Assembly (NCBI GenBank): GCA_039028615.1
Contig: JBCCHT010000009.1
Span: 128,001 to 192,000, forward strand
Length of the DNA: 64,000 bases
DNA from: Myxococcota bacterium
GTDB lineage: Bacteria > Myxococcota_A > Polyangia > Nannocystales > Nannocystaceae
Direction of reading: 5' to 3'
The notes beneath the pieces were generated by a model. That model worked only from the letters and a program-made list of their open reading frames with translations. It was not told where the DNA came from and did not search any database. A program made the translations under genes and the position numbers. Below are positions 25,669-30,409 of this stretch, piece by piece (within the stretch, counting starts at the first letter, position 1; the number at the start of each line of letters is the position of its first letter).

Positions 25669-25807
25669 TTCTCTGTTCGCCATCGGCGAACGCATCGACG
25701 CCCGCGTGCTTCCTCGGAAGCCGCGGGCGTCTTCGTGGTTGCAGTCTTTGCAAACGGCGCAATCGCAAGCCAATTGCAAAAGAATGGCGTTCGAGTACCC
25801 TGCGCCA

Positions 25808-28144
25808 ATGTCCCTTGGAGGTCTCGCTGCGGCGCTCTCGCTGAGTTCCGTGTTGCTGGTCGGCGGAGCCCCGTCCGCTTCTTCCGACCCCTTTCGTCAG
25901 CTCGAGGAGATCCTGCCCACTCCCACCACGACGCGCACGGGCTCGGGCGCGCCGGGTCACGAGTACTGGCAGCAGGAAGTCGACTACCGCATCGAAGTCT
26001 CGATCGATGACAAAGATCATCGGCTCCATGGTCGAGAGCGGGTTCGCTACCAGAACAACTCGCCCGACACGCTGGAGTACCTGTGGCTGCAGCTCGACGC
26101 GAACGTCTACAGCCCCACGGCGGGTCGAGCCAGCACGGCCACCGCTCCGACCTTCGATCGGGTCCCGTACCGCGCCTTGGGCTACCTGGTCGCGGGCCGG
26201 ACCTTCGATGGCTCGGTCGAGCTGTCCGAGGTCGTCGATCGACGCGGCCGCTCGCTCGACTACACGGTGTCCGGCACGATGATGCGGATCGATCTGCCCA
26301 AGCCGCTCAAGCCCAAGGGCAGCTTCGTGTTCGAGATCGAGTGGTCCTACGCGATCAACGACAGCGAGCTCGTACCGGGGCGCACCGGGTTCGAGCGCTT
26401 CGATGATGGCAACATCATCTACGAGATCGCGCAGTGGTTCCCCCGGCTGGCCGCCTACGAGGACGTCAACGGCTGGCAGAACAAGCAGTTCCTGGGCGGG
26501 GGAGAGTTCACGCTGGAGTTCGGCGACTACGACGTGTCGATCACCATGCCCGACGACTACGTGGTCGCGGCGACGGGTGAGCTACAAAATGCGCGGTCCG
26601 TGCTCTCGGCGAGCCAGCGCGAGCGGCTAGAGGACGCCGAGGAGGCGGACGCGCCCGTGTTCATCGTCAACCCCGCCGAGGCCGAGGCCAACCAGGCCGC
26701 GACGCCTTCCAAAGGCACGAAGAGCTGGCGCTTCAAGGCCGAGGACGTGCGGGACTTCGCGTTCGCGGCGTCGCGGAAGTTCATCTGGGACGCGCAGCAG
26801 GTGGAGGTCGGCGGCAAGCCGGTCTGGGCCATGTCGTACTACCCGCTCGAGGGCGAGCCCCTGTGGAGCAAGTACTCGACCAAGGCCATCATCCACACGC
26901 TGAACGTCTACGGGCGCTACGCCTTCGACTACCCCTATCCGGTCGCGATCTCGGTCAACGGCCCCGTCGGGGGCATGGAGTACCCGATGATCTGCTTCAA
27001 CGGGCCTCGCCCCGAGGAGGACGGGACCTACGACAAACGGACGAAGTACGGCCTCATCTCGGTGATCATCCACGAGGTTGGCCACAACTTCTTCCCCATG
27101 ATCGTCAACAGCGACGAGCGCCAGTGGACCTGGATGGACGAGGGGCTCAACACCTTCCTCCAGTACCGAGCCGAGCAGGAGTGGGAGGCGGGCTATCCGT
27201 CACGGCGGGGCGAGCCGCGGAAGATCGTCGAGTACATGCTCAGCGAGGAGCAGGTGCCGATCATGACGAACTCGGACTCGCTGCTTCAGTTCGGCAACAA
27301 CGCCTATGCCAAGCCCGCCACCGCGCTCAACATCCTGCGCGAGACGGTCATGGGGCGGGAGCTGTTCGACTATGCGTTTCGGCGCTACGCCCAGCGCTGG
27401 AAGTTCCGGCGCCCGATGCCCTCGGACTTCTTTCGCACCATGGAGGACGCCTCGGCCATCGACCTCGACTGGTTCTGGCGCGGGTGGTTTTACACGACCG
27501 ATCACGTCGACATCGCGATTCGGTCCGTGCGGGAGTATGTCCCCGACCCGGGCGGGCCCGTGGCGGACAAGAACGCCGAGCGCGAGCTTCGGGACGCGAC
27601 GCCCAAGAGCCTCTCGGAGCAGCGAGACGAGGCGCTGCCCAAGGTGGCCGATGAAGACAAGGACATCCTGGACTTCTACAACTCGTTCGACGAGCTCGAC
27701 CTCACCGCGGCGGACGAGCAGGCGGACGCGAAGCAGCGAGAGGCGCTGACCCCGGAGGAGCGCGCGCTGCTGGACCTCGAGGCGCACTACTTCGTGATCG
27801 AGCTGGACAATGTCGGGGGCCTGGTGATGCCGGTCATTCTCGACCTTCGATTCGAGAGCGGGGCCCGACGCGAGGTTCGGATCCCGGCCGAGGTGTGGCG
27901 CAGGAACTCGCAGCGGATCGGCAAGCTGCTCATCGTCGACGAGCCCATCGTCTCCGTGACCGTCGATCCCCACCTCGAGACCGCCGATGCCGACCTGAAC
28001 AACAACCATTGGCCGCCCAAGCCGCAAAAGAGCCGGTTCCAGATCTACAAGGACGAAAAGAAGAAGAACCCCATGCAGGAGGCGGGGCTCGGCAAGCCGG
28101 TGGAGGCCAAGGAGACCAAGGCGACCCAGGAGCAGGCCCGATGA
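25808..28144 (+). CDS. Secreted M1 family zinc metallopeptidase
   Basis: Signal peptide; GGMEYP, HEVGH, WMDEG, NAYAKP; start could be 25784. Confidence 0.93.
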   Translation: MSLGGLAAALSLSSVLLVGGAPSASSDPFRQLEEILPTPTTTRTGSGAPGHEYWQQEVDYRIEVSIDDKDHRLHGRERVRYQNNSPDTLEYLWLQLDANVYSPTAGRASTATAPTFDRVPYRALGYLVAGRTFDGSVELSEVVDRRGRSLDYTVSGTMMRIDLPKPLKPKGSFVFEIEWSYAINDSELVPGRTGFERFDDGNIIYEIAQWFPRLAAYEDVNGWQNKQFLGGGEFTLEFGDYDVSITMPDDYVVAATGELQNARSVLSASQRERLEDAEEADAPVFIVNPAEAEANQAATPSKGTKSWRFKAEDVRDFAFAASRKFIWDAQQVEVGGKPVWAMSYYPLEGEPLWSKYSTKAIIHTLNVYGRYAFDYPYPVAISVNGPVGGMEYPMICFNGPRPEEDGTYDKRTKYGLISVIIHEVGHNFFPMIVNSDERQWTWMDEGLNTFLQYRAEQEWEAGYPSRRGEPRKIVEYMLSEEQVPIMTNSDSLLQFGNNAYAKPATALNILRETVMGRELFDYAFRRYAQRWKFRRPMPSDFFRTMEDASAIDLDWFWRGWFYTTDHVDIAIRSVREYVPDPGGPVADKNAERELRDATPKSLSEQRDEALPKVADEDKDILDFYNSFDELDLTAADEQADAKQREALTPEERALLDLEAHYFVIELDNVGGLVMPVILDLRFESGARREVRIPAEVWRRNSQRIGKLLIVDEPIVSVTVDPHLETADADLNNNHWPPKPQKSRFQIYKDEKKKNPMQEAGLGKPVEAKETKATQEQAR

Positions 28145-28620
28145 TCGGCCGTCGAGCGCTGCTCGCTGGCCTGGCCGGAGCGCTGGTGGCCCGAAGCGCC
28201 GGGGCGCATCCCTATCACGTGAGCACGGCCGAGGCCTGGGTCCGGGATGGCCGGCTCGAGGTCGCGCTGAAGGTCTCGCCCGAAGATCTCCAAGAGGCCC
28301 TGCGCCGAGCCGCGGGCAAGAAGGTCGACATCGACGGCGACATCTCGGCCCTCATCCGGGCCTACCTGCGGAAGCACTTCACCGTGCGCGGCCCGGACGG
28401 ACTCGTGCCGATGAAGTGGGTGGGCAGTGAGGTCGAGGTGGAGACCGCGTGGCTGTACTTCGAATACGAGACGCCCGGCTCGGCCAAGGGCTATGCGCTG
28501 TACAGCGGGGTGTTCTTCGACATCGCCCCCGCGCAGGTCAACCGGGTCCTGGTTCACCACGGTACGGCCTCGCGAACCCTTCGCTTTCGCCCTGGCGACC
28601 GACCCCGCCGCCTGGGCTAG
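28141..28620 (+). CDS. DUF6702-like exported protein
   Basis: ATGA overlap with the peptidase; GRRALL signal; mature N-terminus HPYHVS; WLYFE and QVN motifs. Confidence 0.75.
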   Translation: MIGRRALLAGLAGALVARSAGAHPYHVSTAEAWVRDGRLEVALKVSPEDLQEALRRAAGKKVDIDGDISALIRAYLRKHFTVRGPDGLVPMKWVGSEVEVETAWLYFEYETPGSAKGYALYSGVFFDIAPAQVNRVLVHHGTASRTLRFRPGDRPRRLG

Positions 28621-28704
28621 CCGAGGCGGCAACGCGGGCGACTTCGCCCCGTGCGCAGGCTCGATCCGCCGTTTCGAGCCCGTCGGAGAGAAAATTCATG
28701 GAGG

Positions 28705-28731
28705 TGTAAGAAACGAGGGGGGGCGTGCGTC
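28705..28731 (+). promoter_or_regulatory. ECF sigma-type promoter candidate TGTAAG-N17-CGTC
   Basis: TGTAAG 28705-28710, 17-nt spacer, CGTC 28728-28731, 46 bp upstream of the metallothionein-like start. Confidence 0.55.
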
Positions 28732-28777
28732 AGCACGAGCACGAAGGGCCGGGATGGCCCAAAACCGAGGAAACCCC

Positions 28778-28927
28778 ATGGAAGACACCTGCAAATGCCC
28801 GTGCACGCAATGCGAGAGCCATTGCTCCTGCCCCTGTTCGCCTCCCCAAGACGGCGGCTGTTGCTGCGGCGCGACGTGCACCTGCGGCGACAACTGCCCG
28901 TGCGATGAGTCCTGCGGCTGTCCTTGA
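28778..28927 (+). CDS. Metallothionein-like Cys-rich peptide (49 aa, 16 Cys)
   Basis: GAGGA RBS 6 nt before ATG; MEDTCKCPCTQCESHCSCPCSPPQDGGCCCGATCTCGDNCPCDESCGCP; no aromatic residues; all Cys codons TGC/TGT in frame. Confidence 0.85.
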   Translation: MEDTCKCPCTQCESHCSCPCSPPQDGGCCCGATCTCGDNCPCDESCGCP

Positions 28928-28954: not shown

Positions 28955-29521
28955 ATGGCCGTTCAGGCGAAAGTCCCCTCGAGGGAGACCCTGATCGCGG
29001 ATGCTCTTCGTGAGCACGCCGCCCAGTTCCGTGCGTTCGTCGGCGCGCGCGTGCCTCCGGGCGAGGTCGAGGACATCCTGCAGACCGCGGCTTTTCGCGC
29101 CGTCGAGCGCTCCGGGTCCCTGAAGGACTCGGAGCGTCTCCTGCCGTGGCTGTACCGGCTGCATCGCAACATCATCGTCGACACCATGCGCCGACGAGCG
29201 AGCCGCGAGCGCGTGGTCGACCCCCATGCGGTGGCGCCCGAGCCCTCGGCCCAGCCCTCCGAAGACCCGTGTCACTGCGCCCTCGTGCTGGCCCGGCAGC
29301 TGAGCCCGGCCTACGCGTCGATGCTGTCGCTGGTGGACGCGGGAGATGCTTCGGTGGCGGAGGCCGCCGAGGCGCTGGGAATCTCCACCAACAATGCCGC
29401 CGTTCGTCTTCATCGTGCACGCAAGGCCTTGCGAAAAGCGATGCTCGAGCACTGCGGCGTACGCAGCCCGAGCGAGTGCGCCGACTGTCGCTGCGCATTC
29501 GAAGGTTGCTGCGCGATGTGA
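28955..29521 (+). CDS. CorE-like ECF sigma factor with CxC linker and C-terminal Cys-rich domain
   Basis: EDILQ..WLYRLHRN.IVD (sigma2), PCHC linker, AEALGISTNNAAVRLHRARKAL (sigma4), HCGVRSPSECADCRCAFEGCC tail. Confidence 0.88.
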   Translation: MAVQAKVPSRETLIADALREHAAQFRAFVGARVPPGEVEDILQTAAFRAVERSGSLKDSERLLPWLYRLHRNIIVDTMRRRASRERVVDPHAVAPEPSAQPSEDPCHCALVLARQLSPAYASMLSLVDAGDASVAEAAEALGISTNNAAVRLHRARKALRKAMLEHCGVRSPSECADCRCAFEGCCAM

Positions 29522-29578: not shown

Positions 29579-30409
29579 GTGCTATGGGATGACGTCGAGA
29601 TGGCGAAGTTCAACGTCTGTGCCCGGCGGATTCTCGTGGGCACGGCCGTCGCCAGCAGCTACGACTGGATCGACTTTCACCGCTGCGTGGAGGGCCTCGC
29701 CCGCCTGACCGGAGAGCCCTTCACGGCCGTCTTTGCTCGGCTGGAGAAGCAGCACGGCTTCGGTCGTCGCCCCGGTAGCTGGCCGGACGGGAGCACGCTG
29801 CGGGCGGCGACCCGGCAGCTGGTCGAAGAGCGCGAGGCCTGGCTGGCTCGTTACCGTGCCTTCGTCGAGCAACGTCGTCGCGAGAAGAAACAGGGCCTCC
29901 GCCACCGTCGCCGCGAGCCCCTCGAGGAGCTGGAGGCCAGTCGACGCCAGCATGCGGCGTTTCGGCCCCGGCTCGGCTACTGGGGCTGGGCTCGGCTCCG
30001 CGAGGGGCTCGGCACGGTCGTCCCTCACCAGGACTCGCGGCTCCGCTTTCCGATCGTGCGCGGCGGCGGCCTGAGGGTCTGTCTCGATCTGCGCCGTCAC
30101 CCGGAGCCGGCCCTCGATCGAAGCGCGTTCGAGGGACTCGAAGGGGCGCTGGGGAGGACCGAGCTCCGCTCGCGGGTGCTGGTGGTCGTCGCCACGGCGA
30201 AGATTGCTGCGGCCTGGCTGGAGAACCCCGGCGGCCCCGAGCTGCGACGTGCACTGAAGCTGGGGCGGCGGCTCGGCGGTTTTCGTCGCGAGATCTGGCT
30301 GGCCCATCGCACGCCGGCTCACGCGGCCGAGCGCTGGCCCGCGGTGAGCGATGAACTTCGAGCCATCATCGACGGCGAGGGCTGGACGTTGCGGGCGATC
30401 CGGCTATAG
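29579..30409 (+). CDS. Hypothetical protein
   Basis: 276-aa ORF with GC3-rich codons; no motif recognised; start may be 29600. Confidence 0.6.
   Translation: MLWDDVEMAKFNVCARRILVGTAVASSYDWIDFHRCVEGLARLTGEPFTAVFARLEKQHGFGRRPGSWPDGSTLRAATRQLVEEREAWLARYRAFVEQRRREKKQGLRHRRREPLEELEASRRQHAAFRPRLGYWGWARLREGLGTVVPHQDSRLRFPIVRGGGLRVCLDLRRHPEPALDRSAFEGLEGALGRTELRSRVLVVVATAKIAAAWLENPGGPELRRALKLGRRLGGFRREIWLAHRTPAHAAERWPAVSDELRAIIDGEGWTLRAIRL

Follow-up and report, generated by a model that had tools for sequence, protein, structure and literature searches.

Few bacterial metallothioneins have been characterized, and the sources consulted describe the SmtA/BmtA type, MymT and one thioredoxin fusion. SmtB serves as the regulator of the SmtA-type metallothionein. 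Metallothioneins as a class are defined as small proteins rich in cysteine, arranged in CxC, CxxC and CC motifs (PMC13578184). The SmtA/BmtA proteins of Synechococcus and Pseudomonas (PF02069) adopt a GATA-type zinc-finger fold that includes histidine, with BmtA being tied to zinc regulation (PMC10612145). MymT of Mycobacterium tuberculosis is a small, unannotated cysteine-rich ORF product that was found late, and sequesters metal as a Cu(I)-binding protein (PMC7558416). M3Cys9 clusters have been described in animal and plant metallothioneins; the mammalian beta domain, SpMTA of sea urchin and Ec-1 of wheat pair a nine-cysteine segment with a smaller cysteine segment (PMC10612145).

The closest described regulators are CorE and CorE2 of Myxococcus xanthus, which belong to the sigma factors of extracytoplasmic function (ECF) in group ECF44, now ECF238. 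These proteins consist of sigma2 and sigma4 domains only and act in a metal-homeostasis context (PMC4937300). A linker CxC motif and a cysteine-rich tail are the hallmarks of CorE-like factors (PMC8999054; PMC4937300), and the linker motif is essential in both CorE and CorE2 (PMC4937300). Loss of Cys174 from CorE2, the residue that marks its Cd/Zn-responsive subtype, shifts the response to copper (PMC4937300). The group description of ECF238 states that target promoters are not conserved and that the group is not autoregulated (PMC7826278), and corE2 is likewise reported not to be autoregulated (PMC4937300). The main text of both CorE papers contains no mention of the word metallothionein (PMC3107203; PMC4937300). 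In the literature covered (subscription reviews of 2011 and 2018 lie outside it), passages of PMC13578184, PMC7558416 and PMC11672702 among it, no account was found of the peptide family described here or of any metallothionein controlled by a CorE-like sigma factor.

A cysteine-rich peptide gene and its family

The window (the whole 64,000-nucleotide stretch of DNA analyzed, from the Myxococcota genome G000) carries a metallothionein-like peptide gene at 28778–28927 on the forward strand. Translation yields 49 amino acids with 16 cysteines (positions 5, 7, 9, 12, 16, 18, 20, 28, 29, 30, 34, 36, 40, 42, 46 and 48), a single histidine (position 15), no aromatic residues, a linker of SPPQDGG and a net charge of -6. 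A ribosome-binding site, GAGGA, lies at 28767–28771 (forward strand), 6 nt upstream of the ATG. These features, the charge aside, agree with an earlier note on this DNA, as does the observation that in the list of ORFs the peptide appears solely within a longer frame, a GTG-initiated one of 166 aa (28427–28927) whose tail it forms. An alternative in-frame ATG at 28754 would give 57 aa and has no good ribosome-binding site; the start at 28778 is preferred because of the lengths of the homologues. The cysteines fall into an N-terminal segment, CxCxC-x2-C-x3-CxCxC (28790–28837, forward strand), and a nine-cysteine core, CCCG-x2-CxC-x3-CxC-x3-CxC (28859–28921, forward strand).

Short cysteine-rich frames are common in G000, a genome of 68% GC that contains 25 ATG-initiated ORFs of 25–90 aa with at least eight cysteines and 20% cysteine, and therefore conservation was tested and composition not relied upon. 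The nine-cysteine core occurs once in G000 (six frames, 12.3 Mb). The family comprises 54 members representing 48 distinct peptides of 43–60 aa, with 11–16 cysteines (14 in 29 of them; 27% cysteine), and shares the CCCG-led core together with four to seven N-terminal cysteines. The core shows little or no variation across 47 aligned members, though it was the search criterion for the 33 of the 48 that derive from metagenomes; the N-terminal count, which formed no part of the search pattern, is four to seven in all 33. Among the eight closest genomic homologues, cysteine is invariant at 14 of 16 positions, with C5, C20 and His15 varying. The N-terminal half had also been described as a seven-cysteine-plus-histidine domain, a description that does not extend to the family: histidine is missing from 40 of 48 homologues with no conserved histidine column, and the N-terminal half usually carries four or five cysteines (commonest form CxC-x2-C-x3/4-CxC; a five-cysteine pattern in 36/48) and seven in only 7/48. 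Positions other than cysteine are weakly conserved (median identity 31%).

Over the 21 codons of the core, pS averages 0.70 and pN 0.22, third positions being the most variable (the pairs are not independent), and cysteine codons alternate between TGC and TGT (340/91). An RBS-like 4-mer precedes 47 of the 48 homologues by a loose, uncontrolled test. The conserved core, the 48 distinct homologues and the excess of synonymous over replacement change rule out a spurious-frame artefact. Judged by these patterns of sequence conservation, the 49-codon ORF is a real, conserved coding gene under selection, and the expectation of conserved homologues under purifying selection is borne out.

Among sigma factor relatives from 61 genomes, the same peptide lay upstream in all four of the closest cases, and a first profile made from these five peptides, that of the window included, picked out members in 8 of the 73 genomes searched from the order. 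An eight-peptide profile run on a 401-genome sample of the phylum gave ten matches, eight being members (G000 included) and two being cysteine-rich stretches of unrelated longer ORFs; this search overlooked true members that were later recovered by searching for the sigma factor first. The DNA pattern of the core retrieved 42 stretches from metagenomes, of which 40 were members (one without its start), and none of 29 matches in viral contigs belonged to the family. In the class Acidimicrobiia, sigma-first searching matched a single genome in 401 and, subsequently, six among 121 relatives, with all six carriers encoding a peptide of 43–45 aa and 13 cysteines behind the promoter motif described below. 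The module is present in many myxobacteria-related and some actinobacterial genomes, hence in at least two phyla. Individual members vary: an 18-cysteine form in G101 (locus L333, C28) has four tandem CKC units, a repeat expansion of the CxC-x3 module (unit CKCGPD), and G393 contains a degenerate peptide, the only sigma factor found there being SigZ-like. One member (L177, P0007) reads into sigma-like sequence to give a 144-aa product, probably through a frameshift or assembly error.

Existing annotation rarely captures the gene. The exact 49-aa peptide is absent from a collection of 15 billion proteins, and a search with the single peptide against 5.8 billion proteins gave no match. Nine family peptides were looked up exactly; two were present, both as 'hypothetical protein', and seven were absent, though a different choice of start codon would also produce a miss. 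Profile searches of protein clusters returned 12 and 17 clusters named only 'hypothetical', whose source names are Labilithrix, Polyangiaceae, Myxococcales and Lujinxingia; one entry, WP_164856419.1, comes from Lujinxingia sediminis. These names suggest that G000 belongs to a myxobacterium of the class Polyangia. The partner sigma factor gave 171 clusters by comparison, and its exact protein, unlike the peptide, is in the database. Gene finders mostly miss the peptide gene, as had been suspected. Pfam, NCBIfam and the PDB yielded no accepted match for the family; the sole match to a Pfam metallothionein was Metallothio_5 (E 0.37, one of 47 members), and no metallothionein chain of the PDB was matched at E up to 10, bearing in mind that HMMER bias correction weakens profile tests on cysteine-rich peptides. 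The nearest named language-model clusters are metallothioneins (0.82–0.85), sub-threshold leads only.

The peptide likely resembles a metallothionein by every feature examined, its function being predicted from sequence. The family is small and cysteine-rich, an aromatic residue occurs in one of 48 homologues, and an AlphaFold2 model of the peptide has neither strands nor helices, the trait of little fold thus resting on a weak model (pLDDT 54.5) that gave no match in Foldseek. As with SmtA/BmtA, the peptide is small, cysteine-rich, predicted to be cytoplasmic and likely a zinc buffer. Unlike them, the family has no conserved histidine or aromatic residue, and its predicted regulator is an ECF sigma factor rather than SmtB or Zur. 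Membership of the SmtA/BmtA type is rejected, given PF02069 matches in 0 of 47 members, the missing histidine and the single aromatic, which upholds the proposal of a distinct family. MymT offers a parallel as a small cysteine-rich ORF found late, but is described as mycobacterial and Cu(I)-binding; the peptide family has no Pfam or NCBIfam match. The mammalian beta domain, SpMTA and Ec-1 share with the peptide the lack of histidine and aromatics, the CxC-x3-CxC arrays and the arrangement of nine cysteines plus a smaller segment, whereas the core here is led by CCC. The description 'eukaryote-like' thus stands for composition and motif spacing, and fails for profile or structural matches to eukaryotic metallothioneins; on present sequences, convergence appears equally likely as homology.

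The partner sigma factor and a shared promoter-like site

The gene for a 188-aa CorE-like ECF sigma factor (group ECF238) begins 27 nt past the peptide stop codon (28955–29521, forward strand; Sigma70_r2 and r4_2). It contains sigma2 and sigma4 domains only, a linker CxC (C106 and C108; 29270–29278, forward strand) that is invariant in 60 aligned homologues, and a C-terminal cysteine-rich domain, H-C-x7-C-x2-CxC-x4-CC (29450–29512, forward strand). Among the same 60 homologues, H166, C167, C175, C178 and C180 are invariant and C185 and C186 are conserved in at least 90%; the tail, a variant layout with six cysteines, is common to 117 of 119 database homologues. A regular-expression search found no other CxxCxC-tailed sigma factor in G000. 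The protein shares its domains, linker motif and cysteine-rich tail with CorE and CorE2, but differs in the tail, which has no equivalents of Cys173 and Cys174; an alignment anchored on the terminal CxxCxC places serine where CorE2 has Cys174. Most partner sigma factors form one supported clade (99/90) with this derived tail, and database members of the clade include Actinomycetota and Pseudomonadota bins. Two peptides (L048 and L176) precede canonical CorE-type sigma factors instead.

The pairing is tight. The sigma gene lies directly downstream in 40 of 43 members (those with at least 500 nt of contig downstream; five of 48 were dropped), at a spacing of 13–145 nt, and sigma-first searches recover the peptide, so the proposed synteny with CorE-like sigma factors holds. 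Across 26 Myxococcota loci found sigma-first, derived-type sigma factors had the peptide in five cases, lacked it in two and met a contig edge in two, while other sigma factors had it at 2 of 17; for the derived-type sigma factors of G256 and G457, no peptide was found elsewhere in the genome with the query used. The genes flanking the module in the window recur in none of 71 homologous loci, and the unit is therefore taken to be promoter, peptide and sigma factor. Upstream of the module, 25706–28620 (forward strand) encodes an M1 peptidase followed by a DUF6702 protein, and 29588–30409 (forward strand), past the sigma gene, encodes a 273-aa product that matches nothing in Pfam or NCBIfam and lacks homologues both in G000 and in the loci fetched. 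A functional link to any of these three genes is rejected on the same absence from the 71 loci.

A predicted ECF promoter was found by motif match at 28705–28731 (forward strand), with TGTAAG as the -35 element (28705–28710), a 17-nt spacer and CGTC as the -10 element (28728–28731). This site, which precedes both the peptide and sigma genes, is the single match to TGTAAG-N17-CGTC in the window, where 0.03 are expected. Scored with a matrix built from 45 other members, it ranks top in G000 at 27.2 bits, against 17.8 bits for the next site; members themselves score 13.4–28.8 bits, so weaker targets may be present in G000. Of the 48 peptides, 46 have the motif in the 150 nt upstream, compared with 16 of 4800 shuffles, and the two remaining homologues have one-mismatch versions. 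Seven further genomes (G002, G028, G019, G061, G062, G882 and G906) contain no exact match to the pattern other than the peptide's own site; additional matches in other genomes are about as numerous as in a backwards control and mostly due to chance. The same motif precedes metal exporters in other loci. In G418, peptide and sigma genes are on separate contigs and each retains the site. This speaks for the peptide as a target of the sigma factor and for autoregulation of the latter. Peptide and sigma factor are likely transcribed from the shared site, and conservation of the motif before peptide-sigma units contrasts with the published account of non-conserved ECF238 promoters. Four genomes from a single genus (L266, L326, L331 and L332) also conserve the 17-nt-spacer motif some 300 nt upstream of the gene for an RpoH-like sigma factor.

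The close pairing also invites a reading in which the peptide partners the sigma factor in regulation, either as a soluble anti-sigma factor or as a metal donor to its cysteine tail, rather than storing metal in bulk. ECF sigma factors are usually co-transcribed with an anti-sigma factor (PMC8999054), and in addition to the tight co-occurrence and short spacing, peptide and sigma factor show modest co-divergence (Mantel rho 0.25, 15 of 5000 permutations, 28 pairs, kin not being independent). However, CorE-like sigma factors reportedly need no anti-sigma factor (PMC4937300; PMC7826278), and no conserved anti-sigma-like neighbour was found at the peptide-sigma loci scanned. The poor conservation of non-cysteine positions, separation of the two genes in G418, repeat expansion in G101 and the presence of unrelated cysteine-rich peptides (L010, L014, L015 and L256) in the equivalent promoter-driven position, be it upstream or downstream of a sister sigma gene, also speak against such a partnership, which we regard as improbable.

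Candidate metals and the predicted circuit

Spacer length follows the sigma clade: 17 nt in 36 of 37 derived-type pairs, and 16 nt in both canonical pairs and throughout the 14 sites of ten canonical loci. Canonical CorE-like loci encode CopA-type ATPases in four of ten cases (three directly behind the site), a multicopper oxidase in one, and RND pumps (62 of 96 ORFs scanned). The neighbours of the peptide loci instead include MerC-domain proteins (six loci), COG0523/CobW proteins (four loci), ZIP, ZnuA, Fur, FolE, DUF1826 and CDF proteins. The 129 and 113 ORFs scanned (of 137 and 172 crudely called) include neither a P1B ATPase nor a multicopper oxidase. The E-value limits of the scans differ, so that the comparison can be trusted where large copper enzymes are concerned but not in the case of MerC. 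In G113, a 17-nt site precedes a ZntA-type ATPase, a link absent from three congeners. Zinc or cadmium is favoured because zinc-homeostasis genes surround the peptide loci, whereas copper genes accompany the 16-nt sister clade. The zinc-starvation genes nearby have their own regulation, and what their presence suggests about the metal is a hint.

Other observations concern the same loci. MerC-domain membrane genes adjoin the module without mer operon genes at L004, L005, L040 (by eye), L046, L047, L184 and L212. A second peptide type with 11 cysteines lies directly downstream of canonical CorE-like sigma genes (L010:1279–1449, L014:1310–1453 and L015:1279–1452, all reverse strand), each behind its own 16-nt-spacer site, and further cysteine-rich variants are upstream of canonical sigma genes at L256:1576–1728 (forward strand; G388, C1) and L301. 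Both sigma types are present in G388, and each has a peptide and a spacer length of its own.

No P-type ATPase was found in the G000 assembly (94 contigs), there being no PF00122 match, no DKTGT motif and no CopA, while five of five relatives have two to eight; the gap may be a real loss or an assembly gap, as the assembly may be incomplete. A PF02069 metallothionein is likewise missing from G000, the Synechococcus control being detected. The genome does encode a CDF protein and an oxidase, with no promoter motif upstream of the oxidase operon. The lack of both PF02069 metallothionein and P-type ATPase fits a reliance on sequestration.

The same circuit could instead handle copper, the peptide being a Cu(I)-thionein and the sigma factor sensing copper as CorE does. 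The Cys174 rule, with serine at that position in a sigma factor that lacks the residue conferring a Cd/Zn response, and the two peptides preceding CorE-type sigma factors (L048 and L176, with 16-nt sites) point toward copper. Histidine-free CxC-x3-CxC arrays are also typical of fungal Cu-thioneins, a copper sink could be useful in a genome where no CopA was found, and a di-haem peroxidase gene (L184), a MerR gene (L189) and an RND gene (L183) each occur once nearby. Against this stand the absence of CopA and multicopper oxidase genes from the peptide loci scanned, unlike the sister clade, the difference of the derived clade's 17-nt spacer from copper-gene promoters, and the G000 oxidase operon without the motif. 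A copper-handling circuit is on these grounds unlikely, if far from negligible, and sequence context makes zinc or cadmium appear about twice as probable as copper.

On balance, and by a modest degree of belief, we favour the view that the peptide is a cytoplasmic metallothionein for Zn(II)/Cd(II), co-transcribed from the shared site with a metal-activated sigma factor and serving as a feedback buffer. Excess metal would bind the linker CxC and cysteine-rich tail of the sigma factor, activating it as shown for CorE and CorE2. The sigma factor would then transcribe the peptide-sigma operon, a positive autoregulation suggested by the motif, its predicted targets being the peptide and itself rather than the exporters and oxidase of CorE and CorE2. 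The peptide would fold around the metal, the nine-cysteine core probably as an M3Cys9-type cluster, which fits those of animal and plant metallothioneins, and the four to seven N-terminal cysteines would add one or two ions. As free metal falls, the sigma factor would switch off, closing a negative feedback loop.

High thiol content, the MerC-domain neighbours, best NCBIfam matches of the sigma factor to SigZ models (below cut-off) and a single radical SAM gene lying some 6 kb off in G002 might alternatively suggest a general thiol, redox or metalloid (arsenite, mercury) scavenger, or the precursor of a RiPP or disulfide peptide. No mer or ars operon genes were found among the neighbours scanned, however, nor any conserved modifying enzyme, protease or exporter. 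None of the 48 homologues has a signal or leader peptide, the first cysteine following within a few residues of the start. A RiPP precursor is accordingly rejected, and this group of readings as a whole seems marginally more improbable still than a regulatory partnership.

Beyond the favoured zinc/cadmium buffer, the module could be imagined as a portable two-gene zinc thermostat of eukaryote-like chemistry. The peptide would replace an anti-sigma factor by competing for the activating metal, the 17-nt rather than 16-nt spacer would insulate the circuit from the copper CorE circuit where a genome has both, and sequestration would stand in for export in G000 with its missing P-type ATPases. This extended picture is tentative and rather doubtful.

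The family adds a histidine-free, 13–16-cysteine metallothionein-like type, found in at least two phyla, to the few bacterial metallothioneins characterized. As annotation mostly misses it, bacterial metal sequestration is probably under-counted. CorE-like sigma factors gain a conserved promoter and a predicted target, and the compact, predicted sensor-plus-sponge circuit may be of use for studies of metal specificity and for biosensors.
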